The notes beneath the pieces are model-generated. The model saw nothing but the letters and a program-made list of their open reading frames with translations. It searched no databases and was not told the DNA's origin. From NCBI GenBank assembly GCA_036796695.1, contig DAIRCK010000001.1:128145-192144 (forward strand): a stretch of 64,000 nucleotides of DNA, given 5' to 3'. Made by a program: the position numbers and the translations under genes. This document shows, piece after piece, positions 14,237 to 52,478 of this stretch (position 1 is its first letter; the number at the start of each line of letters is the position of its first letter). Origin of the DNA: a bacterium. Lineage in GTDB: Bacteria > Hydrothermota > Tepidihabitantia > SM23-42 > JAOAFX01.

Positions 14237-14239
14237 ACC

Positions 14240-14701: not shown

Positions 14702-14724
14702 AATTTATAATCTCTAATGTATTA

Positions 14725-15510
14725 TCATAAGGCAATCTTCTTGTACACACGTTCTGTCCTATTCACAATATTAAAAAATTTTGCCTCAGGAATACCAAGG
14801 AGCAATTCAACCTTACCGATAACGAGATAACCACCGGGTCTGAGAGTTTCGTAAAACCTGTGGACAAGTTCAGATTGAGCATCCCTGCTCATATAGATCA
14901 AGACATTACGGCACATAATCAGATCACAGGGTCCGTGCGGAAAATTATCAAACAAATCAAGATGGAAGAACTTTACAATTGATTTTATATTATCCTTAAT
15001 TCTATAATCTCCATTATATTTTACAAAATATTTTTTTAGATATTCTGATGGTGTATATTGGAATGCGGTTATTGGATAGATCCCCTGTTCAGCCTTATTT
15101 AGCGCATCATCATCAATATCGGTTGCATAAATTATCGTCTTTTCTATAATAGCTGTTTCAGAGGCCATCATTGCCAGAGAATATGCCTCTTCACCCTGGG
15201 CACAACCCGCACTCCATAAAATCACTTTTTCATTTTTAGCAAATTCAGGCAAAATATCCGTCTTTATATACTCAAATGTCTCAAAGTTTCTAAAAAAATA
15301 TGAAAGGTTTATCGTAATGGTACTGAGTAGTTTTTTAAGTTCTTCAGGATTTTTATTGAGATAGTCATAATACTGAGAAAATTCATTCAATCCAAGTGCA
15401 CGCATCCTCACCCTTATTCGTCTGGTCAGAGGTCTTTCTTTATAACTGTGACATTTAAAACCTGTCTTCTCCTCAATTAATTTTATCAAATTCTGGAAAT
15501 TATGTTCCAC
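14725..15510 (-). CDS. cheR: Chemotaxis protein-glutamate O-methyltransferase.
   Basis: CheR N-terminal helical domain ('TGFKCHSYKERPLTRRI', 'FFRNFETFE') and SAM-methyltransferase domain ('ILWSAGCAQGEEAYSLAM', 'IMCRNVLIY'). Confidence 0.85.
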   Translation of the reverse strand: MEHNFQNLIKLIEEKTGFKCHSYKERPLTRRIRVRMRALGLNEFSQYYDYLNKNPEELKKLLSTITINLSYFFRNFETFEYIKTDILPEFAKNEKVILWSAGCAQGEEAYSLAMMASETAIIEKTIIYATDIDDDALNKAEQGIYPITAFQYTPSEYLKKYFVKYNGDYRIKDNIKSIVKFFHLDLFDNFPHGPCDLIMCRNVLIYMSRDAQSELVHRFYETLRPGGYLVIGKVELLLGIPEAKFFNIVNRTERVYKKIAL

Positions 15511-22478: not shown

Positions 22479-22571
22479 TATGCTCCTTTAATCAATTATA
22501 TCCAATTTTAGACAAAAGTCAACAAGTTTAAGTTTATCATTTTATTGACAATAAAGTAATTTGCTGTATAA

Positions 22572-23765: not shown

Positions 23766-24517
23766 AGTTATTTGGATTTCTCAATCTCAACACCCTTGAT
23801 CTCATTGACATTGTAATAGTTGCAATTTTAATATATCAGTTTCTGAGGTTTATAAAAGGGACCAAGGCAACCCCAATTTTGTTCGGGATTTTAACTATAT
23901 TTGTAGTATCATTCATCGCACGCTGGTTTAACCTCAGAGCCTTGGCCTGGATAATGAATTCCATCCTTGCAGTCTGGGTTGTTGCCTTTGTCATACTCTT
24001 CCAGCCAGAGATAAGAAACGCCCTGGCATTCATTGGTAGACAACGTCCCCTGCGATTTTTTTTCAAAGTTGAGCCTTTTCCAACTGTAAGTGAAATAATT
24101 GGTGCAATAAAAAAACTTTCTGAACAGCGGCATGGTGCACTAATTGTCATTCAAAGGAATGATAGTCTTAGCGATATAATTGATTCCGGTGTGCGCATTG
24201 ATGCCTTAGTAAATTCCATTTTGATTCAAAGTCTTTTCTTCCCGGATAATCCATTACACGATGGAGCCTGTATTATTCAGGGCGATAAAATTATTGCTGC
24301 TTCCTGTGTCTTACCATTGAGCGAAAATCCTGATCTGGGCGGTAAATTTGGTTTGAGACACCGTGCTGCCCTGGGAATTGCCGAGCATACAGATGCATTC
24401 TGCATCGTAGTTTCTGAAGAAACCGGGAGAATCTCCTTTGCATACAAAGGTAAACTCATCACACGGGTCTCCGCAGATGCCCTGGCAAAAACATTAAAGA
24501 AGGTGATTAAAGAATAG
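23762..24517 (+). CDS. cdaA: Diadenylate cyclase (c-di-AMP synthase, CdaA/DacA type).
   Basis: Three N-terminal TM helices and a DAC domain ('HGALIVIQ', 'LHDGACIIQGDKIIAASCVLPLS', 'GLRHRAALGIAEHTDAFCIVVSEETGRIS'). 4-nt overlap with folP. Confidence 0.85.
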   Translation: MKLFGFLNLNTLDLIDIVIVAILIYQFLRFIKGTKATPILFGILTIFVVSFIARWFNLRALAWIMNSILAVWVVAFVILFQPEIRNALAFIGRQRPLRFFFKVEPFPTVSEIIGAIKKLSEQRHGALIVIQRNDSLSDIIDSGVRIDALVNSILIQSLFFPDNPLHDGACIIQGDKIIAASCVLPLSENPDLGGKFGLRHRAALGIAEHTDAFCIVVSEETGRISFAYKGKLITRVSADALAKTLKKVIKE

Positions 24518-29958: not shown

Positions 29959-29986
29959 TTGACACATCATTGTTTTTACTTATAAT
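29959..29986 (+). promoter_or_regulatory. Sigma-70-like promoter directly abutting the fur start: TTGACA, 16-nt spacer, TATAAT.
   Basis: Consensus hexamers. The -10 ends 5 nt before the fur ATG at 29992. Confidence 0.45.
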
Positions 29987-34637: not shown

Positions 34638-35255
34638 ATGCGCGACCATAAAAAGATGTATGGAATCTATTTGAAGGCGAGCTTCCTCATTGCAATTGTT
34701 ATAATAATCGCCTTTTTCCTAACCCTCCCCTATGCAGAACCAGAACCATATAAATTAAAACAGGAAGTCGTCGGTTTAATTAACGAAATAACAATGGAAA
34801 TTGATAAACAGATCGAACCCATTGATAACACTGTGAGACCAAAACCCCAGCCTACAGTCATAGCCGCTCAAAATCCTGACGATGGTGTCACAACAATAAA
34901 CCCTACAGACTTTGGAGAAAATATCATCCCGATCACACCAACCGGACCTGATATTGAAATCATTCCATACTACAAGGTAGAGGTCAAACCCCAGCCCATA
35001 TCAATGCCGTCACCAGTATATCCTCCGCTTGCTGCCAAAGCAGGGATTGAAGGTAAAGTTATTGTGAAAATGCTCATTGACATTGATGGCGGTGTGATTG
35101 CGGTTGAGGTAATAAAATCAAGCGGAAATCAAATGCTCGATGAATCTGCTATTGTTGCTGCAAAAAATTCTAAATTCACGCCTGCGAAACAGAGAGATAA
35201 ACTTGTGCGTGTCTGGGTGGTGAGACAGATTGAATTTAAACTCGCGGGTGGATAA
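34638..35255 (+). CDS. tonB: Energy transducer TonB.
   Basis: N-terminal TM anchor, Pro-rich linker, and a C-terminal TonB domain ('PVYPPLAAKAGIEGKVIVKMLIDIDGGVIAVEVIKSSG...LDESAIVAAKNSKFTPAKQ'). Confidence 0.75.
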   Translation: MRDHKKMYGIYLKASFLIAIVIIIAFFLTLPYAEPEPYKLKQEVVGLINEITMEIDKQIEPIDNTVRPKPQPTVIAAQNPDDGVTTINPTDFGENIIPITPTGPDIEIIPYYKVEVKPQPISMPSPVYPPLAAKAGIEGKVIVKMLIDIDGGVIAVEVIKSSGNQMLDESAIVAAKNSKFTPAKQRDKLVRVWVVRQIEFKLAGG

Positions 35256-35256
35256 T

Positions 35257-36264
35257 CTAAGATTTTGATAGACTTTTTTTCAGATAATCTATTCTTTTGA
35301 CCGGCAAAGGGTCAATACCGGTTTTCAGGGCAAGATAATACGAAAGAAAATCACCCAGCATTATTGTGGAGAAGACCTGTTCAAGCAGGTTTTCACCTGA
35401 TGGTTTGATTTCAATGAATTTCAACAGTTTAATCTCTCTCTGAATTATCTCCTTGATTATCTTAACCCTCAATCTATTCCGCTCTAATGCATTGGGGTCA
35501 TTGATAAAAATTAAAACCAGGTCTTTATTAAACCGCTCTGGCCTTCCAATCCCGACAATCTCGTTATGATTCATCTCAGGAATGATATTCGTGTGGCATA
35601 GAATCTTTGCATTCTCATTCAATTGGCACTGCCACCTTTTGGCAATGACTCCAGTCGCATTTGAATTTGCATATATGATTGGAAGTTTAGAGATAAATAA
35701 TTCAGTAAGCCCCTTAGCCCTTTTTTCAAGTTTGACTGCCTGTTTTTTTAAAAATACTGATAACTTCTTAAGTTGGTTCCGGGGTTCTCTCTTTGTCAAG
35801 CCAGTGCGATATAATAAAAGGGGTATCGGAGTAAATAAATATCCTAAGGCACCCCTTGGTGGAAGCCCGCCAGGGATCTGGATCTTAAGGGATGACCTGC
35901 TATTTAGAAGTTTCCCATTTGAGGAAATAATAACAATAGGGATACCCTTCTCATTTAAAAGATTATAGTTATTCAACGTTTCTTCTGTATTACCTGAATA
36001 ACTTACAAGTATCCCTAATGTCCTATTATCAACATAACCAGGAATTTGATAATCTTTATTTACAATGATATTCAAATCAGGATAAAGGATTGAAACGATA
36101 TCTCCGCTTATGCCCGAACCACCCATACCACATATCAATACTTTTTCAAACTTTTGGCTTAAAAATTTTTTGTTTAAACTATTACGCCATGCATAATTAA
36201 AAATTCCTATACCTTCGTCGATCTGTTCTGGTAAAGAATATATTATCTCACGCATATCTTTCAT
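35257..36264 (-). CDS. Bifunctional phosphoglucose/phosphomannose isomerase (SIS-domain PGI/PMI family).
   Basis: 'VLICGMGGSGISGDIVS', two SIS-like halves, about 330 aa. Last gene of the PTS operon with a 4-nt overlap with ptsI. Confidence 0.65.
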   Translation of the reverse strand: MKDMREIIYSLPEQIDEGIGIFNYAWRNSLNKKFLSQKFEKVLICGMGGSGISGDIVSILYPDLNIIVNKDYQIPGYVDNRTLGILVSYSGNTEETLNNYNLLNEKGIPIVIISSNGKLLNSRSSLKIQIPGGLPPRGALGYLFTPIPLLLYRTGLTKREPRNQLKKLSVFLKKQAVKLEKRAKGLTELFISKLPIIYANSNATGVIAKRWQCQLNENAKILCHTNIIPEMNHNEIVGIGRPERFNKDLVLIFINDPNALERNRLRVKIIKEIIQREIKLLKFIEIKPSGENLLEQVFSTIMLGDFLSYYLALKTGIDPLPVKRIDYLKKSLSKS

Positions 36265-38015
36265 TTCATCAGCTCTTCAATCCCCGGGAACTTCTTTCTC
36301 ACCACCCTGTTTAAAAATTTCTTCACCTCAAGGGCAGTTCTAAAATTCAATGCCTCCTGGGCAATTTCCTGACATTGTGCAACTGTGAGTGTTCTCAAGA
36401 CAAGTTTTGCCTTTGGTATTGAAGAAGGGCTCATTGACAACTCATCAATACCAAGCCCTACCAGAAGCGGTATTGCCAATGGGTCACCAGCGAGTTCTCC
36501 ACATAATCCAACCCAGATATTACTATTATGCCCGGCAGTGATTGTTTCCTTTATCAATCGCAGGACCGCAGGATGAAAATGGTCAAAGAGCTGGCTTATC
36601 CTCTCATTACCACGGTCAACCGCAAGTGTGTATTGTGTTAGATCATTTGAACCAATGCTGAAGAAATCAACTTCCCCGGCAAGAAATGAACCCATCAATG
36701 CAGCTGAAGGTGTTTCAACCATTATCCCGAGTTGGATACTGTCATCAAATTCAATCTTCTTTGATTTCAATTCTTGTTTTACTTCGTTAAATATCAGTTT
36801 GACACGTTTAATCTCTTCATAGGTGGAAATCATAGGAAACATTATCTTTATGTTCTTATTGACCGAGGCACGCAATATCGCCCTTATCTGGGTCTTAAAG
36901 AATTCTGTTTCCTGGAGACAAACCCTGATTGCCCGCCAGCCCAGAAAAGGATTTGCCTCATGGTAATCAGAAAATATCTTATCTCCACCCAGGTCATATG
37001 TCCTGATTATCACAGGATGGGGTTTGACCTTCTTTGCCAGTGCATTATATACTTTGAATTGCTCTTCCTCAGATGGAGAACCACGCCTTGCAAGATATAA
37101 AAATTCGGTTCTGAATAACCCTACCCCCACAGCACCATATTTAACTGCATGATCAACCTCAGAAAAAAATTCAATATTTGCTGAAATATCTATCCGTTTC
37201 CCATCCCTTGTTTCAGGTGATAATTCACAGGCTGGTAAGAGTGCCTTTGCTATCTGCTGGTTCTTTTTTTTCTGTTCTTCATAGAAACTTATCCTTCCTG
37301 AACTGGGATGGACGATAACAATTCCTCGTTCGCCATCAACGATTATATCATCCCCATTCTGAACCTTGTTTATAAATTCACCAATACCCAAGATTGCCGG
37401 TATTTCAAGCGCCCGTGCGGTGATCGCTGTATGGGATGTCCTTCCACCCAGTTCCATTGCAATACCAACCACATTCTTTGGATTTATAAGTGTTGCCTCT
37501 GAGGGTGGGATATCACGCGCCACTATGATTGAACCGGGCGGTGCTTCAAGCACCGATGTATGAGATACCCCTAAAAGATTTTTCAACACCCTCTCACCCA
37601 CATCATATATGTCAACAACCCTTTCCTTGAAATAGGCATTCTTACTTTCGCCAAGTTTTTTAGCATATTCACTTATGACTTCATTGTATATATACTCTAC
37701 ATTTTTCTTCTCATTGAATATACGTTGTTTAACTGATTCAAATATTGTTTCATCCTCAAGCATCATAATCTGGGCATCGAGGAACTGACCAAAATCCTCG
37801 CCAATTTCTCTATTAATCTGTTCTTTAATCTTCTTCAGTTCCTCCCTTGTTTTTTCTATTGCTTTTTCAAACCTTAAAACCTCGTCCTTAAGATAGACTG
37901 ATAGAATAGGCGTCTGGAATATCTCGGTCTTCTTTATCTCATATATAAATGCCTTTCCAACAGCAACACCCTTTGATGCAGGAACACCATGGAGTATCTT
38001 TTCTTTAGGCATCAA
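36261..38015 (-). CDS. ptsI: Phosphoenolpyruvate-protein phosphotransferase (PTS Enzyme I).
   Basis: 'GGRTSHTAITAR' (His domain), PEP-utilizing domain motifs 'RTYDLGGDK' and 'FFSIGSNDLTQY'. Confidence 0.9.
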   Translation of the reverse strand: MMPKEKILHGVPASKGVAVGKAFIYEIKKTEIFQTPILSVYLKDEVLRFEKAIEKTREELKKIKEQINREIGEDFGQFLDAQIMMLEDETIFESVKQRIFNEKKNVEYIYNEVISEYAKKLGESKNAYFKERVVDIYDVGERVLKNLLGVSHTSVLEAPPGSIIVARDIPPSEATLINPKNVVGIAMELGGRTSHTAITARALEIPAILGIGEFINKVQNGDDIIVDGERGIVIVHPSSGRISFYEEQKKKNQQIAKALLPACELSPETRDGKRIDISANIEFFSEVDHAVKYGAVGVGLFRTEFLYLARRGSPSEEEQFKVYNALAKKVKPHPVIIRTYDLGGDKIFSDYHEANPFLGWRAIRVCLQETEFFKTQIRAILRASVNKNIKIMFPMISTYEEIKRVKLIFNEVKQELKSKKIEFDDSIQLGIMVETPSAALMGSFLAGEVDFFSIGSNDLTQYTLAVDRGNERISQLFDHFHPAVLRLIKETITAGHNSNIWVGLCGELAGDPLAIPLLVGLGIDELSMSPSSIPKAKLVLRTLTVAQCQEIAQEALNFRTALEVKKFLNRVVRKKFPGIEELMK

Positions 38016-38269
38016 TCCTGCCCTTCAAGTATCTGCCTTAAGGCATTAAAGGCTTCTTCCTCATCTTCGCCATTACATACCAAAATCACCTTTGCCCCCC
38101 TTTCACAGGCTAAAGTCAATATTCCCATAATTGACTTGCCATTTACCTTCACCCCATCCTTTATCAGTTCAACCCTGCTCTTAAATTTCTCAGCAAGTTT
38201 TACAAACCTTGATGCAGGAAGGGCATGCAAGCCATTCTCATTTAAAATTGTAATCGTCTCTTTTATCAT
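38012..38269 (-). CDS. ptsH: Phosphocarrier protein HPr.
   Basis: 85 aa with 'NENGLHALPASRFV' (His-15 region) and a 'GKS' Ser-46-like region. Confidence 0.8.
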   Translation of the reverse strand: MIKETITILNENGLHALPASRFVKLAEKFKSRVELIKDGVKVNGKSIMGILTLACERGAKVILVCNGEDEEEAFNALRQILEGQD

Positions 38270-38958
38270 AAAAATATCAGATTAATTATTATCAAAATAA
38301 AGACAAAAGTCAAGATTAAAATCGGTGTCACCCTTTTCCAGAGCAGGATAATAAAAATACCAGTAAGTGGAATTAGAAATAATAGACTGAACCCCTTTTC
38401 AAGTATGATCGGTATCAAACCAATACAAAATGCACCGATCGATTCAGATATTCTCTGGAGCCAATATAGATCTTTGCCCTTTAAAATATAGATAACATCC
38501 CAGCCCATTTTATAACCTGTGATGAAACCATAAAAGCGAAAATAAATATGAATCAGGTTATATAATAATATAAAGATTAAAGGTCCAATAAGTCCATATT
38601 TCACTCCGGTGATAATTGCAATAACTAATAATGCAGGTCTTATTGTCTGCCAGAATAGGGTATCACCAAATGATGCAAATGCAGACTGACTAACCATTAT
38701 GTGTTTTTTTAAATCTTCTAAATTATTTTCTTTATCAATGGTATTTAGAACCGCGCCAATAATAAAACCCGCCATATATGGATGGGTATTGAAGAATGTG
38801 CGGCTGTGTTGAAAAAGAAATTCATTCTTTTTCTTATCGATGCCCATCATTGTAACAACCAGAAATCCAAGTGACTGCATTGAATGAAAAGACCAGGAAG
38901 CCTGCAAAAATAAACCAACAAAGAATAATTTTAAAAGACGAAATAAGCCAATGCGCAT
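38266..38958 (-). CDS. PTS mannose/fructose/sorbose-family IID component.
   Basis: 'FFNTHPYMAGFIIGA' IID signature and a polytopic membrane profile. Confidence 0.7.
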   Translation of the reverse strand: MRIGLFRLLKLFFVGLFLQASWSFHSMQSLGFLVVTMMGIDKKKNEFLFQHSRTFFNTHPYMAGFIIGAVLNTIDKENNLEDLKKHIMVSQSAFASFGDTLFWQTIRPALLVIAIITGVKYGLIGPLIFILLYNLIHIYFRFYGFITGYKMGWDVIYILKGKDLYWLQRISESIGAFCIGLIPIILEKGFSLLFLIPLTGIFIILLWKRVTPILILTFVFILIIINLIFL

Positions 38959-39575
38959 ATCACACCTATGACCAGAAAATAGAAAGAATGTCTTTTAAAA
39001 TACAGATAAATCCCATTGGCAATACCGATTGAAACAATGATTATCAATAAAAATTCTTTATTAAAGGTAGCCCCCAAAACTGGAAATCTTACAATGCTAA
39101 CCAAAAAGAACAATGGCAGGAATAAAACCACACCCCTGATAAAAGCTGTACCGATGCCGGCGAAATGGTAGATATATAATTTTTTATGGTCTCTTAAGAA
39201 CCGGTAGAAGAGACCCTCATTTATTCGACGCACAACTATATCAAGGGAACTGCCCAGGATTGATACAAGGATACCGATAAGAAAAACTATCATCAAATTT
39301 GGTTCGTTTTGATTTGAACTTTTCAATAGAAAATAAGAACCACAGCCAGCAATGCCTGCTGCCTGGGCATCAGGAGGGATATCCTTTCCAATCGGCAGAT
39401 TAGCAAGAAAGACCATCTGGAATAGTGCACCAATAAATATACCTGTCTTTGCATCCCCAAACAATGCACCAATTATTGCACAAGCGACTATGGGCTGCGA
39501 TATACCGAACTCGCCGAATGCATATTTATCAAGAAGGATTAGTGCTCCAAGCAGGGCCAAAAAAACGACCATCAT
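38931..39575 (-). CDS. PTS mannose/fructose/sorbose-family IIC component.
   Basis: 'ILLDKYAFGEFGISQPIVACAIIGALFGD' IIC(Man) signature and a hydrophobic profile. Confidence 0.7.
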   Translation of the reverse strand: MMVVFLALLGALILLDKYAFGEFGISQPIVACAIIGALFGDAKTGIFIGALFQMVFLANLPIGKDIPPDAQAAGIAGCGSYFLLKSSNQNEPNLMIVFLIGILVSILGSSLDIVVRRINEGLFYRFLRDHKKLYIYHFAGIGTAFIRGVVLFLPLFFLVSIVRFPVLGATFNKEFLLIIIVSIGIANGIYLYFKRHSFYFLVIGVICALAYFVF

Positions 39576-41488
39576 AATTCTATTTTTATCTTTGGTGGAT
39601 TTGAGAAAATCATCATCATTGAAAATCCCTGAAATATTTTTTCAAATCCTGATTCACTTGAAGAGATCGTCTCGATGGGGTATGTCAGGAGAATAAATTT
39701 TTCTGAAGCAGAAAATCTGATAGGCTGGAGTGCATTACCTTCAACCGTGAAATTATCTATTTCCGGAATCTCCTGGAGTTCGTATAGACTGTACTTACCA
39801 TTTATCTTTAAATCAGGATTAAAGATACCCAGGGAAAATTCTACACCTAAATTTTTTACCTGTCCTTCGTATATGAATTGTATCATTGGTGCGTTTTCAT
39901 CTACCTTTATAATCTTTTTCAGATTCAAATCTGGATTAAACAGAATAAATTCAAATGTCTTGTGTTCTATCAACTCGTAGTTAACAATTTCTCCGATATT
40001 TTCCTGATAATAAAAATCTTCTTTTGTTGGGCTTACTTTGAATATATGGTCAATGCCAAATGCCCTATCATATTTATCATATATGAGATATTTATCCAGG
40101 TCCTTCCCTTTTGAACGAACAACCTCGTGAATTGACTTCACTTCTTCTTCATCCCTTGACTGTGGAATCAATTCATGGTATTTTTCCCTGCGTCGGGCTA
40201 TGTAATTTAGTATATTTTTAAGACTCTTTCGGTCATCAATTTCTATGAAACTTCCTGTATCGGGTTTTAATATACAGAAAAGATGATGGGTATTCAAAAC
40301 AAACTCATCCTTTCCATCAACATCAATATCAAATCTTTCCAGCCCGACCCTGATGTTATGAGATTCTGCATTAATAAGATTCTGATAAACTGCTTCTCTC
40401 AAATGGGGAAGATAGAGCCCCCCAAAGATTCCATGCCAGTAAGCACAGGAACATTGTCCACGCCACAAACTCAATTTTGCATTAATATCATCTTTTATGT
40501 TTCTTGATACATAGAGCATTCTTTTATGCATCAAGTTCGCTTCAGGATAACGACTCAAAAAATTTTTAAAATAACCACCATGTATCAAATGATAAAATCT
40601 TTTTTCCACACTTCTCTTCAATTCAACATAATTTTTGCCTGCATTCAATGGTAAAACCCATTCACCCATCTCTTCGTAAGATGCTGTGGGTATATAAACC
40701 CTTCCCGCAGGTAGTTCTTTTTTAATAATATCTTTCAAATGGACCGTCTCAATACACTCTTCGTTGCTGAGAAAATCTAAAAATTTTTCCAGCCATTGTT
40801 CCTTATACACCCAGTTGTATGTTCCGGGCCAGACCCCGAATTTTTCTCCATCATCACCAAGAACCTTTAATATACCACTCTCTTTCCTTCCCTCTTCTTT
40901 TAAATAATTCTTTACCTCATCCACAGGGTGGAAAGGAATCAGGTATCTTAATTTCATTGAAATGGGGAATATCCTCAAAACCCTGCCTCTGTCCTCGGTA
41001 ATGAAATATGATTTCAAATCATCTTCATTTAATCCGGCATAGAGAAAATGTGTATCATCAAGCAATGTATAATCAATGCCAGAATCCACAAGTAATGGAA
41101 TCAATCCTGGTTCCCAAACCCTTTCAGTCAACCAGAGCCCACAGCTCTCCACCCCGAATAGTTTATAGATATAATCCTTAAAATACTTTATCTGTGCTAA
41201 AACATCCTCGGGAGGTATCAAAGAGAGTATCGGTTCGCTAAAAGCCGAAACCAGAATCTCAGCCTGATTATTATTTACTGCTTCTTTTAGATAATCAAAA
41301 TATTCTGGATGATTCTTTAATAACCATTCGCACAGGGTGCCTGAATTATGAATTCCGAATTTAACCTTTGGAAACCTTAAAAGTGTCTTTATCAAAGGTA
41401 AATAAGAATGCTCATAGGCAAATTGAAAAATATGGTCAAAATTGCCTACGGGCTGATGATTATGGATATATAATGCAAGTCTTATCAT
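39572..41488 (-). CDS. Glycoside hydrolase family 57 protein (alpha-glucan-active; amylase/branching-enzyme/4-alpha-glucanotransferase type). Cytoplasmic.
   Basis: N-terminal 'LALYIHNHQPVGNFD' (the H-x-HQP GH57 hallmark), then 'LWLTERVWEP' and 'GVWPGTYNWVY'. No signal peptide. Confidence 0.6.
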   Translation of the reverse strand: MIRLALYIHNHQPVGNFDHIFQFAYEHSYLPLIKTLLRFPKVKFGIHNSGTLCEWLLKNHPEYFDYLKEAVNNNQAEILVSAFSEPILSLIPPEDVLAQIKYFKDYIYKLFGVESCGLWLTERVWEPGLIPLLVDSGIDYTLLDDTHFLYAGLNEDDLKSYFITEDRGRVLRIFPISMKLRYLIPFHPVDEVKNYLKEEGRKESGILKVLGDDGEKFGVWPGTYNWVYKEQWLEKFLDFLSNEECIETVHLKDIIKKELPAGRVYIPTASYEEMGEWVLPLNAGKNYVELKRSVEKRFYHLIHGGYFKNFLSRYPEANLMHKRMLYVSRNIKDDINAKLSLWRGQCSCAYWHGIFGGLYLPHLREAVYQNLINAESHNIRVGLERFDIDVDGKDEFVLNTHHLFCILKPDTGSFIEIDDRKSLKNILNYIARRREKYHELIPQSRDEEEVKSIHEVVRSKGKDLDKYLIYDKYDRAFGIDHIFKVSPTKEDFYYQENIGEIVNYELIEHKTFEFILFNPDLNLKKIIKVDENAPMIQFIYEGQVKNLGVEFSLGIFNPDLKINGKYSLYELQEIPEIDNFTVEGNALQPIRFSASEKFILLTYPIETISSSESGFEKIFQGFSMMMIFSNPPKIKIEL

Positions 41489-41962
41489 TTAAACTCCTGT
41501 TAATTTTTTTATCACATCAACGGGCTGTGAATTGGGAAGTTGTTTACCAACAATTCTTATGCCCAGTTCATGTATTTTCACCAGAGATTCAATATCTTCA
41601 GACGTCAGATATATAAACGGCACAACCGACCTTGCACCTTCACGATAACCCAAGCCGCCGATATAAACTTCATTGACCTTAAGACCATTTTTCACAAGAT
41701 TATAGGCATCAATTGGTTTTTCCACCACGATCATAGTCCTTTTTTTATCAATCCCATTCTTCAGGTGCTGGATACAACCTTCAATGTCATAACAATGGAA
41801 TACTATATTTTCAGGCACAGCGAGCCTATAGGCATTACAGACCCAGGCATCCTTACTGATTGTATCTGATGCGATTATCAATTCTTCAATGCCCAGAGGT
41901 CTTGCCCATCCTGCGACAACCTGTCCATGAATCAAACGGTCATCAATCCTCAATATGAGCAT
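41489..41962 (-). CDS. PTS mannose/sorbose-family IIB component.
   Basis: 'LILRIDDRLIHGQVVAGWARPLGIEELIIASD', with the IIB(Man) phospho-His in the IHGQV motif. Confidence 0.75.
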   Translation of the reverse strand: MLILRIDDRLIHGQVVAGWARPLGIEELIIASDTISKDAWVCNAYRLAVPENIVFHCYDIEGCIQHLKNGIDKKRTMIVVEKPIDAYNLVKNGLKVNEVYIGGLGYREGARSVVPFIYLTSEDIESLVKIHELGIRIVGKQLPNSQPVDVIKKLTGV

Positions 41963-41963
41963 A

Positions 41964-43616
41964 TCAATCCCAGAATTCCCATTTTATTTCCATACTGAAA
42001 TTGCGCACTATCTCAGGAAAATCCTCTGGTCTTGTGTCTGTTACATTGTCAAAAATCAAACCAAGATGGAGGGTTAAAAATTTTAGACTCAAACCCGGGG
42101 AGATTGTGAAGAATGGCTCGTAGTAATTGCCTGAGGGACAATGTCTCGCATTCACATAGTTAAATCTTGTATATACATTCATAACCGAACGCTCGGTCTT
42201 TCTCTTCCAGTTCAAAGTAAAATTTGTGAAAAAATCTGGAAATGCTGATGGAAAGTCATTATATATCTGATAATTACACACACCGGTCGCAGAAAAACCT
42301 TTTATAACCGGAGAAATAAGGATACCTTCAATCCCGGTAATCTTATTATCAACATTTACCACTGAACAACTATCATTTCCTGTGGTCTGATAAATGATTT
42401 GATTTTTAATATTTGCATTATACAGATTAATCTCAGAATTCCTGAAGACCACACCGATTTCTCTATGGAAATAGGTCTCAGCCTTTATATCGGGGTTTCC
42501 TTTGATAATCAAATTTCTGTCTACGAATTCATAGTTCCCATAATGCGCAATAAAATCAGGTCTTCTGTTGAATAACCCGGACCTGGCGAATATTTTTGCT
42601 TTGTTTAAAATCTCGAAATTCAATCTTGCCTCTGGTTCAAAGTAGATTTTATCCGACCCGTAATCAACACGATAACCAATTCCAGCAATTATCTTATTGA
42701 ATTTACAATTTGTATTCTGGGAAAAGTCTACTTTATTATTTTTATATTTCCCGGGCTTAAATTGACTGGTTAAGACATCGATTTCAAATGTATTTTCTAA
42801 ATTGCCCAAATAAAATAAAAATTTATGCTGTGTGCCATAGGTCAAAAATTGATTTTCTCTTTCTTTGTTGTTTATTTTACTGGCAGTTCTAAAAAATATG
42901 AATTTATAAAAATCTTCTCCTGCTGTCAATGTGATATCACTAAAATCTAAATTTATTATTGTGTCATAAGAATTACCGGTTATAACTATGTCAAGGCGCA
43001 TCGGCATAAAATGATTGTAGTAAAAATTAGCATATCCAGCATTTGTGCGCAGATAAAGTTTCTCAGCATTTCTGTAATGGCGTGAATAAAGTCCACCAAG
43101 ATAAAAACCGGCTGAATTTGTCAGGGCACGGGTAAAATCCATATTATAGATTGTGTTTGGCCCGAATAGAGTAAAATAGAGATAAGAATAGGGCTGGTCA
43201 TAATTATTAAATTTTGTGTTTAAATCAATACTATTTACTCCTGAATTAATATATTTTTTAATAAACACAACAGATTTTATAAAATTATATGGGAAAACCG
43301 TGAAATTAAAACCTTTGGAAAAATATTGATCAAGATAATGAGAATTGATTAGAACCGTAAAAGGATACAGGCTCAGCAAATTAACAATATATCCTTTTTC
43401 CTTCATTATATAAGGAGAATTTCGGAATAGATCTGAAAATCCGGATAAAAAAATATCAGGCTCGATGACCCGTATCTGATTTAAAGCACTATCAAGTATA
43501 CCTGTGGTACTAAAACTTATTATCTCTGGAATTGCATATCTTCGAACCGGGGTTGAATCAACCACCGTCGTATCTGAAGATAATCCATTGCTCAAAAGGA
43601 ATAACCATAAAAACAC
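41964..43616 (-). CDS. Hypothetical outer-membrane protein, probable beta-barrel, heading the PTS operon.
   Basis: N-terminal hydrophobic signal-like segment. Composition is rich in Y/F/N/G with alternating hydrophobic residues, and the C-terminus is aromatic-rich ('IKWEFWD'). No recognizable family. Confidence 0.4.
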   Translation of the reverse strand: MFLWLFLLSNGLSSDTTVVDSTPVRRYAIPEIISFSTTGILDSALNQIRVIEPDIFLSGFSDLFRNSPYIMKEKGYIVNLLSLYPFTVLINSHYLDQYFSKGFNFTVFPYNFIKSVVFIKKYINSGVNSIDLNTKFNNYDQPYSYLYFTLFGPNTIYNMDFTRALTNSAGFYLGGLYSRHYRNAEKLYLRTNAGYANFYYNHFMPMRLDIVITGNSYDTIINLDFSDITLTAGEDFYKFIFFRTASKINNKERENQFLTYGTQHKFLFYLGNLENTFEIDVLTSQFKPGKYKNNKVDFSQNTNCKFNKIIAGIGYRVDYGSDKIYFEPEARLNFEILNKAKIFARSGLFNRRPDFIAHYGNYEFVDRNLIIKGNPDIKAETYFHREIGVVFRNSEINLYNANIKNQIIYQTTGNDSCSVVNVDNKITGIEGILISPVIKGFSATGVCNYQIYNDFPSAFPDFFTNFTLNWKRKTERSVMNVYTRFNYVNARHCPSGNYYEPFFTISPGLSLKFLTLHLGLIFDNVTDTRPEDFPEIVRNFSMEIKWEFWD

Positions 43617-43681
43617 GACTGATTATAGGATAAAATCAGCTTTTTGTCAAGATTATGACGATAAGATCAGCTTTTATTACG

Positions 43682-45025
43682 TTAAATAATCTTTTTCAGT
43701 ATATCTGCAAACCTGTCCAGTTCTTCTTTTGTCCTTTTCTCGGTGACCGCAATCAAGAGTTGATTTTTTGAATTATTATCAAAGATTGTTAAAGGAACAC
43801 CAGCGAATATCTTGTATTCTAAGAGTTTATCAACAATCTCCTGTGCAGGTTTATCGGTCTGGATAAGAAATTCTTTAAAGAATTCTCTATTATAAACCAG
43901 ATTTATCCCTCTTATTTCTTTCAAGCGATTATAAAGATAATGGCTCTTGGCAAGACATTGGTTACCGATTTCAATAATTCCTTGTTTACCAAGGGTGCAG
44001 AGGTATATCAATGAACTCAAAGCGCATAATGCCTCATTGGTACATATATTAGAAGTTGCCTTTTCCCTTCTTATATGCTGTTCACGGGTCTGAAGTGTGA
44101 GAACAAATCCCCTTCTTCCTTCCACATCTGTAGTCTCACCAACAACCCTTCCCGGCATAAAACGCACAAAATCCATCTTTGTAGCAAATATCCCCAATAA
44201 TGGTCCACCAAATCCCTGGGCTATTCCCATTCCCTGCCCCTCACCAACGGCAATATCTGTATTATAATCACCAGGTGGAGTGATAACACCGAGAGATAAT
44301 GGGTCAACCACGCTTATTAGTAAAGCACCCTTTTTATGTGTTATTTCCGATATCTCTTCTGTGGATTCAAGAAACCCATAAAAATTTGGGTGCTGTATTG
44401 CCACACAGGCGGTATCGTCATCAACCAGATCATTCAATTTATCAATATCTGTAATACCCTCTTTCTGGGGCGCGATTACAATCTCCACCCCACATTCTTT
44501 TGTATAGGTCCTCGTAACCTTTTGATAAAATGGATGGATGAGTTCAGAAAGGATAATCTTTTTCCTGTTGTTGATGGCACATGACATATGGCAGGCTTCA
44601 GCAAGTGCAGAACCGCCATCATACATCGATGCATTTGCAACTTCCATCTTCGTCAGTTCACATATAACGCTTTGATATTCAAAAATACTCTGGAGTGTTC
44701 CCTGTGAAACTTCTGCCTGATAAGGGGTATAAGCGGTATAGAATTCGCTCCTTAATATTATACTGTCAATGATCGCTGGTATATAATGGTCATAAACACC
44801 TGCACCAAGGAATGATATGAAATCAAATGTGTTATGGTTTTCCCCGGCAATAGAATGGAGTATTTTCCTTACCTCAAGTTCAGATACAGCAGGTGGCAGA
44901 CCTGCCTTCCCTTTGAATTGTATCTCAGGCGGGATGATTCTATCAATAAGTTCTGAAAAAGAACCGACACCGAGCCGGTTCAGTATTTTTTTCTCATCTT
45001 CGGGTGTTAATGGTAGGTAATGCAT
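43682..45025 (-). CDS. gcvPA: Glycine dehydrogenase (decarboxylating) subunit 1.
   Basis: 'MHYLPLTPEDEKKIL', 'TAYTPYQAEVSQGTLQ' and 'CTNEAL'. Confidence 0.9.
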   Translation of the reverse strand: MHYLPLTPEDEKKILNRLGVGSFSELIDRIIPPEIQFKGKAGLPPAVSELEVRKILHSIAGENHNTFDFISFLGAGVYDHYIPAIIDSIILRSEFYTAYTPYQAEVSQGTLQSIFEYQSVICELTKMEVANASMYDGGSALAEACHMSCAINNRKKIILSELIHPFYQKVTRTYTKECGVEIVIAPQKEGITDIDKLNDLVDDDTACVAIQHPNFYGFLESTEEISEITHKKGALLISVVDPLSLGVITPPGDYNTDIAVGEGQGMGIAQGFGGPLLGIFATKMDFVRFMPGRVVGETTDVEGRRGFVLTLQTREQHIRREKATSNICTNEALCALSSLIYLCTLGKQGIIEIGNQCLAKSHYLYNRLKEIRGINLVYNREFFKEFLIQTDKPAQEIVDKLLEYKIFAGVPLTIFDNNSKNQLLIAVTEKRTKEELDRFADILKKII

Positions 45026-45411
45026 CAGTGTCCTGCAATCAGTTCTTTATATTGTTCTGCTGATAAGAGATTTGCAGTCTCAGATGGATTATTCAACTTG
45101 ATTTTATATATCCAGCCTTCATTATAGGGGTCCTTGTTTATGATTGTTGGTTCTTTTACCACCTTCTCATTTACTTCAATGACCTCACCACTGAGCGGAG
45201 CAAAAAGGTCACTTACTGCCTTAACCGCCTCAATCGTTCCGACCGCATCACCTGCCTTTATCTGTGCTCCTAATTTTGGTGGCTCAACCATCACAATATC
45301 TGAGAGTTCTGACTGGGCATAATCTGTGATACCGGTGATTGCAATATCACCTTCAATCTTTGCCCATTCATGATCTCTTGTATAATTCAATCCTTCAATG
45401 ATATTTGCCAT
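45025..45411 (-). CDS. gcvH: Glycine cleavage system H protein.
   Basis: Lipoyl-lysine motif 'GTIEAVKAVSDLFAPLSGEV'. Confidence 0.9.
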   Translation of the reverse strand: MANIIEGLNYTRDHEWAKIEGDIAITGITDYAQSELSDIVMVEPPKLGAQIKAGDAVGTIEAVKAVSDLFAPLSGEVIEVNEKVVKEPTIINKDPYNEGWIYKIKLNNPSETANLLSAEQYKELIAGH

Positions 45412-45420
45412 TTAGCCTCC

Positions 45421-46509
45421 TTATTTATGCGTCCCTTTTTTGTAAAATGGTCCTTTTATTACTTCGACCAGAATTGGTTCTTTTACCATCACATAAAATT
45501 TCGTCCCTGGTTCAGCATATTGTGTTCCAACATATCCCATTCCTATACCTTTTTTCAAGGACGGTGAGAAAGTGCCGGAAGTCACAAATCCGATCTCATT
45601 ATTATCTAAATAAATCTTCTGGTGCGGTCTGGGGATTCCTTTTTCGATCACTTCAAACCCAACGAGTTTTCTTTTCAACCCGGATTCTTTTATCTTAAGC
45701 AATTCATCCCTTCCTATAAAATCGCCTTTATCAAACTTGACAACCCATCCCAGCCCTGCTTCAAGTGGATTCGTTGTCTTATCAATGTCATTTCCATATA
45801 GACAATATCTCATCTCAAAACGGAGCGTATCCCTTGCACCAAGTCCTATCGGTTTTACATTAAACTCTTTTCCGGCATCAAATATAATATCCCAGATTTT
45901 TAAACCATCCTTTGCCGACATATAAATCTCAAAACCATCCTCACCTGTATAACCGGTCCGGGAAAGTAAGACATCAATACCATTTATTTTTGTCTCAACT
46001 GCCCAATAATATTTCAGTTCTGTTAGGTTATAATCAACAATCTTTTGCATTAACATTTCTGATTTTGGTCCCTGTATTGCAAGTTGTCCAATATCATCAC
46101 TCAAATTTTTTATCTCCACATCGAATTTTTTGTTCTGCAAGATCCATTGATAATCCTTTTCTGTATTTGCCGCATTAACAACAAGGAATATCCTATCTTT
46201 TAGATTATATACCAGAAGGTCATCAACAATACCTGCATCCGGATATAACATTGCTGAATATTGAACCTGGTTTAAGGCAAGTTTTGAAACATCATTCGTT
46301 GTAATATAATTAGCAAACTTTATTCTGTCAGGACCTGTGATCTCTATCTCACCCATATGTGAGACATCAAAGACACCAACAGCAGTGCGCACAGTCTCAT
46401 GTTCAGGAATGATACCCTCAAACTGAATGGGCATAAAAAAACCTGCAAATTCAACAATTTTTCCCTTATGTTCTAAATGTTTATCATAAAAAGGAGTTTT
46501 TTTAGTCAT
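45421..46509 (-). CDS. gcvT: Glycine cleavage system T protein (aminomethyltransferase).
   Basis: '[26 protein letters not shown]', '[12 protein letters not shown]' and '[14 protein letters not shown]'. Confidence 0.9.
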
Positions 46510-50555: not shown

Positions 50556-52478
50556 ATGAAAAATTTTAGTCATACTATTTTGATTATCCTATTTACCAGT
50601 TCTGCCCTCTTTTCTGCTAATACAGAAATTGAGACAATCATAAAAAATGTAGCAAATAGAGTAAATGTTCCTGTATCAGATCTAAAGATTGAAAAAGATG
50701 ACCTTGAATTCTATGGGTATGGTAAATTCCGCACCAGGTTATTTGACCTGTTTATCAGAAATCCACTAAAGATTGACCCCTATATTAGAACCCTATCAAA
50801 AACCATCTTAAATAATGCTGATTCACTCTGGGCAATAAGTTATTTCTCCTGGGCAAGGATTGATGAAGGTGTGCGAAGGGGATTGATTGAGCGTCCAGAT
50901 GAAACTTTGATTAATTCGTTACCAAAAGGCGAAGAATTAAACCAGAAATTGATTATTCTATTACAAGACTCATACAATGCCGATACCACAGGGATTAAGG
51001 AATTGCCCGAGGCAATAAGAATCGGCATTTTTCTGATATTAACAGTAATAAAAAGTTCAATCGATTTGATACAAAAAGGGACTGAAGATTTATCAGTGAA
51101 TGATGCACAAAAAATTGTTCAACAACTTGCTGAATCTGGAGAAGATGGATTATCCAATCGCCATATTGAAACTTTGATTGAGCGGATTGATTTCAAGTTA
51201 ATTTCCGCAGGTGCAATAGATTTATCTTATGTTTTGCAGACTGTGATAGATTTGATGAGGAACGAAGAATTGAAGAAAAAAATTAAGATAGATACAAAAT
51301 TGGGTCCGGTTGTTCTTGGTTCAAAAGAAGATGACCGATACGAACCCTTCCCCTATCTTTTAATAATTGATTTTGGTGGTAATGATACATATATGTCAGG
51401 TGGTGTATCAGACAGGAAACATCCAGTTTCAATCATCATAGATTACTCAGGAAACGACGAATACAACGGTGAGACTGGTTGCGGGACAGGTATTGCAGGT
51501 ATTGGGTTTGTTATTGATTTTGAAGGAAATGATAGATATACCGCAGAAAGATTTGGTCTGGGAACAGGAATATTTGGCCAGGGTATCATTCTGGACCTTG
51601 ATGGTGATGATGAATACAAAACAGAGATCTATGGTATAGGTGCAGGGCTATTTGGCACAGGCGTTATCTCAGATCAATCAGGCAATGACAAATACATTGG
51701 ATTTCAGGGATGCCAGGGATTTGGATTTGTAAAAGGCTGTGGTCTGCTCATTGATAAAGAAGGGAATGATACATATATTGCCCGTGATGATACTATTAGA
51801 TTTCCATCGCCACAAACAAAAGAACATAATGCAAGCCTTTCCCAGGGGGCTGGTTTTGGTGTAAGGGCAGATTATACAGATGGGCATTCATTAGCTGGCG
51901 GTGTAGGAATGTTGATTGATGGGAATGGCGATGATAAATACTCCTGTGGTGTTTTTGGCCAGGGCTGTGCATACTGGTTTGGCGCAGGATTTTTAATTGA
52001 TTATAATGGGAATGATATATACAATGGGGCCTGGTATGTTCAGGGCGCAGGCGCACACTTTGCCCTTGGGGTCTTAATTGATTCTACAGGGAGCGATATA
52101 TATACTGCAACGCATAATATGGCACAGGGTGCAGGGCATGATTTTACAATTGGAATCCTCCTTGATTATGAGGGCAATGATTTACATAATGCCCCGAACT
52201 TGAGCCTTGGTGCAGGAAATGCGAATGGAATGGGATTATTCATTGACATAAAAGGCGATGACAGATATACCACACACAGCGGTATAACACTTGGTAATGC
52301 AAACACGGCAAGCCGTGGGACTATTAGGGATTATATGCGAACAATTGGAATCTTTATTGATTGCGAAGGGAAAGATATTTATTCTGAAAAATTTGCCGGT
52401 GATAAAAAGATCTGGCGTCAGAGGCCACCATTAGAACCACCATTAAAAACAGAAACAGGGATTGGTATTGATTTCTGA
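50556..52478 (+). CDS. Secreted hypothetical protein with a ~250-aa N-terminal region and ~12 degenerate ~23-aa repeats ending in [GD][ND]DxY. Predicted beta-solenoid.
   Basis: Signal peptide 'MKNFSHTILIILFTSSALFSA'. Repeats include 'IIDFGGNDTYMSG', 'IIDYSGNDEYNGE', 'VIDFEGNDRYTAE', 'ILDLDGDDEYKTE', 'ISDQSGNDKYIGF', 'LIDKEGNDTYIAR', 'LIDGNGDDKYSCG', 'LIDYNGNDIYNGA', 'LIDSTGSDIYTAT', 'LLDYEGNDLHNAP', 'FIDIKGDDRYTTH' and 'FIDCEGKDIYSEK'. Each is preceded by a G-x-G-rich segment. Confidence 0.6.
   Translation: MKNFSHTILIILFTSSALFSANTEIETIIKNVANRVNVPVSDLKIEKDDLEFYGYGKFRTRLFDLFIRNPLKIDPYIRTLSKTILNNADSLWAISYFSWARIDEGVRRGLIERPDETLINSLPKGEELNQKLIILLQDSYNADTTGIKELPEAIRIGIFLILTVIKSSIDLIQKGTEDLSVNDAQKIVQQLAESGEDGLSNRHIETLIERIDFKLISAGAIDLSYVLQTVIDLMRNEELKKKIKIDTKLGPVVLGSKEDDRYEPFPYLLIIDFGGNDTYMSGGVSDRKHPVSIIIDYSGNDEYNGETGCGTGIAGIGFVIDFEGNDRYTAERFGLGTGIFGQGIILDLDGDDEYKTEIYGIGAGLFGTGVISDQSGNDKYIGFQGCQGFGFVKGCGLLIDKEGNDTYIARDDTIRFPSPQTKEHNASLSQGAGFGVRADYTDGHSLAGGVGMLIDGNGDDKYSCGVFGQGCAYWFGAGFLIDYNGNDIYNGAWYVQGAGAHFALGVLIDSTGSDIYTATHNMAQGAGHDFTIGILLDYEGNDLHNAPNLSLGAGNANGMGLFIDIKGDDRYTTHSGITLGNANTASRGTIRDYMRTIGIFIDCEGKDIYSEKFAGDKKIWRQRPPLEPPLKTETGIGIDF

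Follow-up and report, generated by a model that had tools for sequence, protein, structure and literature searches.

Does a mannose-family phosphotransferase system (PTS) that is headed by an outer membrane protein, split by a glycoside hydrolase and found with no IIA(Man) gene at its side serve to take up sugar, and if so, how would phosphate reach its IIB component? The question was raised by one operon in a 64-kb stretch of DNA (the window), for which a sequence-only reading had guessed an FCB-type lineage. The guess was sound: the source organism is a candidate division WOR-3 bacterium, a member of an uncultured bacterial phylum.

Organization of the operon

A check of ORFs and families confirmed that all eight genes called in the sequence-only reading are present on the minus strand from 43616 to 35257 and belong to the families proposed for them (Table 1). 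In order, they encode a TonB-dependent transporter, IIB(Man), a GH57 enzyme, IIC, IID, HPr, Enzyme I (EI) and a phosphoglucose/phosphomannose isomerase (PGI/PMI). Every boundary had been put at 4 nt or less, which is true of all junctions but one: a 1-nt gap, 0 nt and a 4-nt overlap are followed by a 28-nt overlap of IIC and IID, also kept in relatives, and then by three 4-nt overlaps.

Table 1. Features of the operon, with positions in the window
Feature	Position	Strand	Length	Support
Sigma-70-type promoter, TTGACA-17 nt-TATAAT	43622..43650	-		12/12 match
Small divergent TonB-dependent outer-membrane transporter	41964..43616	-	550 aa	Profile and Foldseek matches
Stand-alone IIB(Man)	41489..41962	-	157 aa	PF03830, E 9e-39
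Cytoplasmic GH57, Thermococcus-litoralis-type (T. litoralis) 4-alpha-glucanotransferase (TLGT), three domains	39572..41488	-	638 aa	PF03065 + PF09094 + PF09095
Short IIC(Man) membrane subunit	38931..39575	-	214 aa	PF03609, E 1.4e-19
Short IID(Man) membrane subunit	38266..38958	-	230 aa	PF03613, E 4.4e-26
HPr	38012..38269	-	85 aa	PF00381, E 2.2e-27
Enzyme I (PEP-protein phosphotransferase)	36261..38015	-	584 aa	TIGR01417, 623.7 bits (cutoff 341.7)
Bifunctional PGI/PMI, SIS type	35257..36264	-	335 aa	PF10432, E 2.1e-46

The promoter is the sole 12/12 match within 34.5-44.2 kb, and its -10 hexamer ends 5 nt before the GTG at which the first gene begins, which would make the transcript leaderless or nearly so. 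When 39 locus rows were scanned upstream of the transporter gene, 35 had a 12/12 promoter at that position; in most of 31 aligned loci the -10 hexamer ended 5-6 nt ahead of the start, which was GTG in nearly all. The cluster is no chance juxtaposition, as the same eight-gene order recurs between unrelated flanks in dozens of WOR-3 species, in closed genomes and in many MAGs. Reading frames stay intact and translational coupling is kept among proteins whose identity has fallen to 40-65%.

The permease and the phosphate relay

The phosphorylatable His12 of IIB lies within RIDDRLIHGQV, a motif that aligns with the active-site motif of E. coli ManX IIB, and is invariant across 38 WOR-3 sequences, as is the active-site His of EI in GGRTSHTAI. 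HPr has His15 and Ser46 and an atypical active-site motif, GLHALPASRF, with Leu17 and Arg21 in place of Arg17. This motif was invariant in 41 WOR-3 HPr sequences and absent from every outgroup examined; all outgroup HPrs examined have Arg17, as do 146 of the 150 HPr representatives that scored best. The invariance of IIB His12, HPr His15 and Ser46 and the EI His (38-41 species-level sequences) indicates that the relay is under selection. The lack of a near-universal Arg17 could mean an altered, non-canonical phosphotransfer, which counts against uptake.

IIC and IID scored far below the NCBIfam equivalog cutoffs, which marks IIC as a divergent subfamily; with subunits so short and low-scoring, the substrate is not readable from sequence. 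The IID family profile matched E. coli ManZ (6k1h_Z, E 2.7e-31, over 11-187). IID homologues of at least 40% identity came from WOR-3 only, and against the relatives compared from outside WOR-3, the identity of WOR-3 IIC and IID was only about 27-35%.

PGI/PMI, which also matched NF006426 (298.7 bits, cutoff 295), was found wherever WOR-3 sequence reaches far enough, the exceptions being two closed genomes with an operon that stops short. The gene also follows EI at four other loci (L086, L064, L054 and L081), a placement that fits a hexose-6-phosphate product.

The GH57 enzyme and the outer membrane transporter

The GH57 assignment held up: along with its PF03065 domain, the protein aligned at full length with the T. 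litoralis enzyme (PDB 1K1W, E 8.4e-133, residues 5-629), sharing its three-domain architecture and both catalytic residues. These are Glu122 and Asp213, whose WLTERVW and DDGEKFG motifs align with Glu123 and Asp214 of TLGT. The WOR-3 enzyme differs in being bacterial and encoded inside a PTS operon, and its 4-alpha-glucanotransferase activity is predicted. Among 42 loci of other WOR-3 species, 27 carry GH57, in addition to L002 and the window; ten have the same order without it, and the rest are either truncated or without the upstream genes. Its absence from those ten, which nest among GH57-bearing loci in a rough tree, makes GH57 dispensable for the core system, a point against the pathway proposed below.

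The leading gene had been read as an outer membrane protein of generic barrel type; the location stands, and the protein proved to be a TonB-dependent transporter. Searched singly, the ORF gave no Pfam match. The N-terminus is hydrophobic and the C-terminus reads KWEFWD, and the protein also has a DTTVVDS that resembles a TonB box, a degenerate plug and a beta-barrel. A profile built from 20 orthologues in WOR-3 matched 8bmx/8p97/8p98, which are BtuB-like transporters of Bacteroides, with E about 1e-18, through the plug (profile 52-125) and the barrel (380-578); PF00593 and PF07715 were each found in 4 of the 20, and the top Foldseek matches of a low-confidence model were all TonB-dependent transporters. 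Homologues occurred in WOR-3 only. Transporters of the TonB-dependent class usually take larger molecules than the monosaccharides on which Man-family PTSs typically act, a further point against uptake.

Carbohydrate loci with such transporters are familiar from the Xanthomonas CUT loci, Caulobacter MalA/NagA and the Bacteroidota PULs, where, as in WOR-3, the transporter gene shares its transcript with genes for a glycoside hydrolase, a sugar transporter of the inner membrane and a catabolic enzyme. The WOR-3 operon differs from them in using a Man-family PTS for the inner-membrane step, in a transporter that is very divergent and, at 550-583 aa, unusually small, and in having no SusD-like partner, regulator or secreted or periplasmic glycanase; the want of a periplasmic glycanase also speaks against uptake.

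Relatives and origin

With the mannose-family PTS (TC 4.A.6, E. coli ManXYZ) the operon shares the IIB phospho-His motif, IIC, a ManZ-like IID, EI and HPr. In contrast to ManXYZ, its IIB is a separate protein with IIA(Man) neither fused nor adjacent, its IIC and IID are shorter, EI and HPr lie in the same operon, GH57 splits IIB from IIC, and a TonB-dependent transporter comes first.

The nearest IIC, IID, HPr and EI homologues lie in rpoN-linked clusters (rpoN-hpf-ptsN-hprK-rapZ-IIA-IIB-IIC-IID-HPr-EI) of Desulfuromonadales, D. vulgaris and Elusimicrobiota, the "EI-R" type of PMC2405797, which include the glucose PTS of Endomicrobiaceae (PMC11257099). They share the short IIC and IID and the order IIB-IIC-IID-HPr-EI. 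Unlike WOR-3, they have an IIA(Man) gene just ahead of IIB, an HPr that keeps Arg17, and lptCAB, hpf and ptsN alongside, with hprK and/or rapZ, and with rpoN in loci of the Desulfuromonadales type; none of these neighbors is near the WOR-3 loci, which have the TonB-dependent transporter instead. Three Elusimicrobiota loci (L086, L087 and L090) read IIA-IIB-GH57-IIC-IID-HPr-EI, the first with PGI/PMI after EI. The IIB-GH57-IIC adjacency, rightly taken to be undescribed, is therefore recurrent and not confined to the window, being kept across WOR-3 and present, together with IIA, in Elusimicrobiota.

We propose that the WOR-3 operon descends from an rpoN-linked Man-type cluster, IIA-IIB-IIC-IID-HPr-EI, a direction of change suggested by sequence comparison. 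The Elusimicrobiota version already carries GH57 at the junction of IIB with IIC; WOR-3 loci lack the ptsN/hprK/rapZ/IIA segment before IIB and have in its place the transporter gene with a consensus promoter of its own.

The missing IIA

IIA(Man) had been reported absent locally, and so it is. No EIIA of any Pfam family was present among the 62 window ORFs of at least 80 aa, no IIA(Man) was found by tblastn or a custom HMM in six frames of the 64 kb, and the gene immediately upstream of 43616, where one might have lain, is gcvPA. Nor did any of 45 WOR-3 loci have IIA(Man) within 10 kb, which leaves the canonical relay unproven; at outgroup loci with IIB, it is directly upstream of IIB in every case. 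Since the IIB active-site His is invariant, some phosphate donor must exist.

One explanation, which we consider rather unlikely, is that WOR-3 lost the IIA step and the remodelled HPr (Leu17/Arg21) hands phosphate on to IIB His12 without an intermediary, with uptake otherwise unchanged. The HPr change specific to WOR-3, the kept IIB His and the consistent absence of IIA where outgroups have it all fit. However, the change in HPr may be drift within the lineage that Arg21 makes up for, clusters split freely in other lineages (L017, L054, L053), and an IIA gene may stand alone beyond the loci searched, for instance as a leftover next to rpoN/hpf; the window encodes a sigma-54 activator, so the rpoN region is probably elsewhere in the genome. 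We also know of no Man-family IIB shown to take phosphate straight from HPr. For the HPr-to-IIB step, we think an IIA(Man) gene at another genomic site, one of the readings first offered, somewhat more likely than a bypass.

A less likely regulatory or sensory role

Instead of being the main uptake route, the IIB/IIC/IID/HPr/EI set might chiefly signal how much sugar is available, or the PEP:pyruvate ratio, and control carbon storage, GH57 included, through its state of phosphorylation. In E. coli, glycogen phosphorylase is bound and regulated by HPr. HPr Ser46 is invariant with no HprK nearby, shortened versions (IIC-IID-HPr-EI, or just IID-HPr-EI) occur elsewhere, and the rpoN-linked EI/HPr/IIA(Man) cluster, described along with the D. 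vulgaris Man-class transporter, was held to be mainly regulatory (PMC2405797). Ancestry in such a cluster leaves a sensory role possible. Yet the WOR-3 operon is detached from all the rpoN-region regulators and joined instead to an uptake protein and a catabolic enzyme; IIB, IIC and IID are all kept at every WOR-3 locus extending far enough upstream, with L017 the sole exception; and GH57, aligned end to end with TLGT, has no sign of a phosphorylatable regulatory domain. Control of GH57 by phosphorylation, also among the readings first offered, found no direct support, and a mainly regulatory PTS is improbable. Decay after the loss of IIA, with genes persisting through other roles of EI, HPr or PGI, would suit the missing IIA and the shortened loci (L003/L025 and L035, which stop after HPr or IID, and L017, without IIB), but is already disfavoured, and very improbable, given invariant phospho-sites, intact and coupled frames and a perfect promoter despite such divergence.

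A proposed route for hexose and alpha-glucan

The cluster is probably a functional, strongly expressed carbohydrate-uptake operon characteristic of phylum WOR-3, for hexose/alpha-glucan uptake and phosphorylation, with IIA elsewhere or bypassed. Phosphorylation-coupled hexose uptake with isomerization by PGI/PMI, one of the readings first offered, fits best, given the invariant IIB, HPr and EI phospho-sites, the co-conserved PGI/PMI and a parallel in Endomicrobiaceae, where a related, GH57-containing mannose-type PTS is reported to take up glucose and so to offset the loss of glucokinase (PMC11257099). Substrate would enter through the small TonB-dependent transporter, and the permease (IIC/IID with soluble IIB) would take a hexose, most likely glucose and/or mannose, across the inner membrane and phosphorylate it, with phosphate passing from PEP to the EI His, HPr His15 and, presumably, IIB His12. 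PGI/PMI would then convert glucose-6-phosphate or mannose-6-phosphate to fructose-6-phosphate. In the cytoplasm, the GH57 enzyme may disproportionate alpha-1,4-glucan chains, either imported maltodextrin or the cell's own glycogen, and its action would tie free glucose and the alpha-glucan pool to the same phosphorylation route.

Organization of the Operon

The operon comprises eight tightly packed ORFs on the minus strand, which encode, in order, a putative TonB-dependent transporter (TBDT), the mannose-family PTS subunit IIB, a GH57 enzyme, subunits IIC and IID, the general phosphocarriers HPr and EI, and a SIS-type isomerase, PGI/PMI. Seven of the eight were identified directly by Pfam and NCBIfam. 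The junctions are, in the same order, a 1-nt gap, a direct abutment, a 4-nt overlap, a 28-nt overlap between IIC and IID, and three 4-nt overlaps. A sequence-only reading of this DNA had put every boundary at 4 nt or less; this holds at all junctions but IIC/IID, whose long overlap is also kept in relatives.

Features of the operon, its surroundings and some compared loci
Feature	Position (strand)	Length	Identification or content
Operon	43616–35257 (−)		Eight ORFs
Transporter	41964–43616 (−)		
IIB(Man)		157 aa	PF03830, E 9e-39
GH57 enzyme		638 aa	Three-domain; PF03065, PF09094 and PF09095, each above cutoff
IIC(Man)		214 aa	PF03609, E 1.4e-19, 70.9 bits against a cutoff of 26.3
IID(Man)		230 aa	PF03613, E 4.4e-26
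HPr	38012–38269 (−)	85 aa	
EI		584 aa	TIGR01417, 624 bits
Bifunctional PGI/PMI		335 aa	NF006426, score above cutoff
Operon promoter	43650–43622 (−)		TTGACA-17-TATAAT, sigma-70
Further consensus promoters	46543–46516 (−); 22545–22572 (+); 29959–29986 (+); 829–802 (−)		
gcvT-gcvH-gcvPA	43682–46509 (−)		Glycine-cleavage operon with its own promoter
tonB	34638–35255 (+)		PF03544
Context genes	2961–4463 (+); 6547–9522 (−); 13226–15510 (−); 23762–24517 (+)		GAF/sigma-54 activator; 991-aa subtilase with type IX secretion C-terminal sorting domain; cheB-cheD-cheR; CdaA-type diadenylate cyclase
Unassigned ORF	50556–52478 (+)	640 aa	No Pfam match at E up to 0.01
L017, WOR-3-type locus	9384–13711		IIC-IID-HPr-EI-PGI only
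L003/L025, closed WOR-3 genome CP070795.1	10697–10842		Operon ends early
L054, L078, L081, unclassified bacteria	~7.6–12.5 kb		IIC-IID-HPr-EI(-PGI) behind a polyprenyl synthetase gene, no IIA/IIB nearby
L053, L056, L062, Syntrophales-type MAGs	~9.9–12.8 kb		IID-HPr-EI only

The upstream neighbours are gcvT-gcvH-gcvPA. The gene for P-protein subunit 2, gcvPB, was found nowhere within the 64-kb window, and the PTS operon begins at the spot where it would usually stand. At the other end, tonB is convergent with the operon and lies 1 nt from the PGI/PMI stop.

A sigma-70 promoter within the 65 nt that precede the first ORF is the sole 12/12 consensus match in the operon region, and 5 nt separate its −10 hexamer from the GTG start. 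A 12/12 promoter is kept in 35 of the 39 WOR-3 locus rows scanned; in most of 31 aligned loci the −10 hexamer lies 5–6 nt from the start, which is GTG in nearly all. The perfect promoter was considered as a trait specific to the operon and rejected, as similar consensus promoters stand 4–7 nt before starts throughout the window. The genome has many near-perfect sigma-70 promoters (TTGAC[AT]-N16-18-TATAAT), and the short distances at which they often precede start codons suggest widespread leaderless or near-leaderless mRNAs.

The Transporter and the GH57 Enzyme

The window's transporter protein alone gave no match in Pfam. When a profile was built from an alignment of 20 orthologues taken from related loci, it matched solved TonB-dependent transporters (E 1e-18 to 1e-7) over the C-terminal barrel, at about profile positions 330–580, with the Bacteroides BtuB-like structures 8bmx, 8p97 and 8p98 the best at E ~1e-18; in these the matched barrel stretch spans profile positions 380–578. 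In the plug region, profile positions 52–125 align to 65–139 of the 8bmx plug and 40–111 of the plug of E. coli BtuB. Among the 20 orthologues, four match the barrel family PF00593 (best E 1.2e-16), in agreement with precomputed Pfam marks at related loci, and just four match the plug family PF07715 (best E 7.2e-5). A hydrophobic N-terminus is followed by a putative TonB box, DTTVVDS, beginning at D15 and with D15 and D20 invariant in the 20 orthologues; we take it to resemble the TonB boxes of BtuB (DTLVVTA) and FepA. An AlphaFold2 model made from 11 homologues was of poor quality, averaging a pLDDT of 48 and staying under 50 across residues 1–270, the plug half, and every top Foldseek match to it was a TonB-dependent transporter, at a TM score of about 0.35. 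On the profile matches, the Pfam families found in orthologues, the DTTVVDS motif and the Foldseek result, the leading ORF is here called a small, divergent, predicted TonB-dependent transporter, which gives a more specific identity to what had been read from the sequence as an outer membrane protein. Its homologues were found in WOR-3 only. The family ends in a conserved KWEFWD, with Asp or Asn as the final residue; in outer-membrane barrels this last position is usually aromatic.

Residues 5–629 of the GH57 enzyme align with the Thermococcus litoralis 4-alpha-glucanotransferase TLGT (PDB 1K1W; E 8.4e-133), and all three TLGT-type domains are present, namely the GH57 catalytic, AmyA middle and AmyA C-terminal domains. 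Glu122 (in WLTERVW) and Asp213 (in DDGEKFG) align with positions 123 and 214 of 1K1W, which we take to be the catalytic nucleophile Glu123 and the acid/base Asp214 of TLGT. The GH57 identity proposed earlier thus extends to the catalytic residues, and with these and the same architecture a TLGT-type activity is predicted. The catalytic domain begins at the N-terminus, residue 5 aligning with TLGT residue 7, which leaves no room for a signal peptide and points to a cytoplasmic enzyme. A protein identical to the window's GH57 enzyme exists (P0001), and the best GH57 homologues come from candidate division WOR-3.

Conservation in WOR-3 and Origin

The eight-gene order was first met again in the closed genome CP070834.1 and also on a 260-kb JGI contig, both with unrelated flanks and with GH57 enzymes 56% and 60% identical, respectively. 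Relatives of the 230-aa type of IID with 40% identity or above were confined to WOR-3, Stahlbacteria and genomes labelled TA06, the next ones standing no higher than about 31%. A scan with an IID profile over one genome per GTDB species, with genes classified by phmmer, yielded 42 WOR-3-type loci. The full order from transporter to PGI was present in 27 of these, as well as in the WOR-3 locus L002 and the window, so that the IIB-GH57-IIC adjacency noticed in the window is indeed kept by relatives. Ten of the 42 have the same order without GH57, four are cut by contig ends, and one (L017) lacks the transporter, IIB and GH57, its remaining genes standing behind an unrelated Band-7 gene. In a rough neighbour-joining tree of IIC, IID and EI, WOR-3 is monophyletic and the loci without GH57 are nested inside it; this crude tree suggests, as a lead, that GH57 was present in the WOR-3 ancestor and has since been lost one or more times. 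In two closed WOR-3 genomes, CP070795.1 (L003/L025) and CP070705.1 (L035), the operon ends early, with HPr called at 49 aa and no EI or PGI; neighbouring genes in L003 are fragmented too, which suggests either frameshifts in the assemblies or genuine decay in these lineages.

Outside WOR-3, the nearest relatives of IID sit in clusters of the form (lptCAB)-(rpoN)-hpf-ptsN-hprK-rapZ-IIA(Man)-IIB-IIC-IID-HPr-EI in Desulfuromonadales-type and Elusimicrobiota genomes, and IIC, IID and EI have their closest relatives by sequence in such rpoN-linked clusters, which were discussed by Comas et al. (PMC2405797). In contrast to these, the WOR-3 operon adjoins none of their regulatory genes: no ptsN, hprK, rapZ, rpoN or hpf was found in the window, nor within 10 kb at any of 45 WOR-3 loci. 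The WOR-3 operon is a phylum-specific derivative of the rpoN-linked mannose PTS. Partial sets of the same genes were also seen in unclassified bacteria and in Syntrophales-type MAGs (see the table).

Three Elusimicrobiota-type loci also have GH57 between IIB and IIC, and in all three IIA stands directly upstream of IIB. The order is ...ptsN-rapZ-yvcK-IIA-IIB-GH57-IIC-IID-HPr-EI in L087, from Endomicrobia, and in L090, and ptsN-hprK-IIA-IIB-GH57-IIC-IID-HPr-EI-PGI in L086. The IIB-GH57-IIC adjacency is therefore recurrent in two phyla. It was also considered as a general trait of this clade of GH57 enzymes and rejected, since the homologues from L088, a Deltaproteobacterium, and L089, an Omnitrophota MAG, have no PTS linkage. 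A neighbour-joining tree of GH57 did not distinguish a common origin of the PTS-embedded enzymes of WOR-3 and Elusimicrobiota from separate origins. No description of the arrangement was found in the literature searched; a 2024 study of Endomicrobiaceae, which treats the mannose-type PTS as glucose uptake compensating for the loss of glucokinase, does not mention the GH57 gene (PMC11257099).

The Missing IIA and the Phosphorelay

A PTS of this family would be expected to draw on a IIA, and none is encoded locally. No EIIA of any Pfam family was found in the 62 ORFs of at least 80 aa in the 64-kb window, none adjoins the operon upstream of 43616, where the gcv operon stands, and tblastn with three IIA(Man) queries drew a blank both in the window and in the first three WOR-3 loci. 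An HMM of 26 IIA(Man) sequences was run unfiltered against the window and 45 WOR-3 loci, in all frames and down to ORFs of 40 aa; it reached no better than E 1.3 (8 bits), and the same search rejected the idea that a IIA is concealed in the over-long IIB ORFs of some loci. That EIIA(Man) is lacking, fused or free, had been noted from the sequence alone; the local absence proves solid and phylum-wide.

We consider it somewhat more probable than the contrary that phosphate reaches IIB through a IIA encoded elsewhere. Because the window encodes a sigma-54-dependent activator, an rpoN region probably exists elsewhere in the genome, and this would be a natural place for an orphan IIA.

The relay proteins of WOR-3 have themselves diverged to 48–75% identity, and IIB His12, HPr His15 and Ser46, and the active-site His of EI are invariant in 38–41 WOR-3 sequences. 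IIB His12 lies in RIDDRLIHGQV, which aligns with the IIB motif of ManX and in which the histidine is invariant in 38 sequences. The motif GLHALPASRF, with Leu17 and Arg21, is present in all 41 WOR-3 HPr sequences (the window, L002 and L008–L049). Position 17 is Arg in every outgroup HPr, whether IIA is adjacent or not, and also in E. coli HPr and NPr and in B. subtilis HPr. In an exhaustive HMMER search over 1.84 billion representatives, Arg17 was present in 146 of the best 150 HPr relatives listed and Leu17 in one other among those. A single turn of helix A separates positions 17 and 21, so that Arg21 could in part replace Arg17. In WOR-3 the altered motif goes together with the loss of the neighbouring IIA, and this is suggestive of, not evidence for, a rewired HPr partner interface.

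Direct transfer of phosphate from HPr to IIB is rather unlikely in our estimate, and the remaining probability falls to other donors. The fuller proposal, of a PTS without any IIA in which the Leu17/Arg21 HPr phosphorylates IIB(Man) directly and the permease is functionally coupled to the miniature transporter and GH57, is unlikely. The most striking reading, that there is no IIA at all, is unproven.

A Possible Role in Carbohydrate Utilization

The IID family PF03613 is unique to the mannose-family PTS (TC 4.A.6), and the WOR-3 IID profile matches E. coli ManZ (6k1h_Z) at E 2.7e-31. The operon thus has the IIB, IIC and IID of this family and differs in lacking the IIA(Man) family PF03610 locally. 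With a TonB-dependent transporter, GH57 and an inner-membrane sugar transporter joined by close junctions behind one promoter, it also resembles PUL/CUT loci, which unlike the WOR-3 operon have a SusD-like partner and/or a secreted glycanase. Judged by its genes, the operon would work like a mannose-family PTS inside a carbohydrate-utilization locus led by a TonB-dependent transporter. The transporter would admit a sugar or oligosaccharide, IIC/IID with phosphorylated IIB would import and phosphorylate a hexose, and PGI/PMI would lead to fructose-6-P. The GH57 enzyme may disproportionate alpha-1,4-glucans, either imported maltodextrin or the cell's own glycogen, and would thereby exchange glucose with the pool activated by the PTS.

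The chief functional alternative is that the PTS serves mainly in regulation, as a legacy of its rpoN-linked ancestor. Against this speak the separation of the operon from all regulators of the rpoN region and the union of the PTS with an uptake protein and an isomerase, and it appears quite improbable beside the uptake role. That the operon is a decaying remnant is ruled out by the invariant phospho-sites and the conserved 12/12 promoter.

To our knowledge, WOR-3 has no cultured members, and bacteria of the FCB group are generally thought to be without sugar PTSs. A whole candidate phylum nevertheless keeps one highly conserved PTS operon that holds its EI and HPr, and no second copy was found in the window or in the flanks examined. 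It unites three modules not normally found together, a TonB-dependent outer-membrane transporter, a mannose-family PTS and a GH57 alpha-glucan enzyme. Its unusual traits are the leading transporter, the GH57 gene embedded between IIB and IIC, a recurrent architecture common to WOR-3 and Elusimicrobiota, and the absence of a neighbouring IIA combined with an HPr without Arg17. Each component belongs to a known family, and the architecture is apparently undescribed. Were the reading without IIA true, the operon would carry a three-protein phosphorelay, shortened relative to the canonical one; we know of none in the mannose-family PTS. If IIA is merely encoded elsewhere, the operon would still provide a concrete, testable model of sugar uptake and activation in WOR-3.
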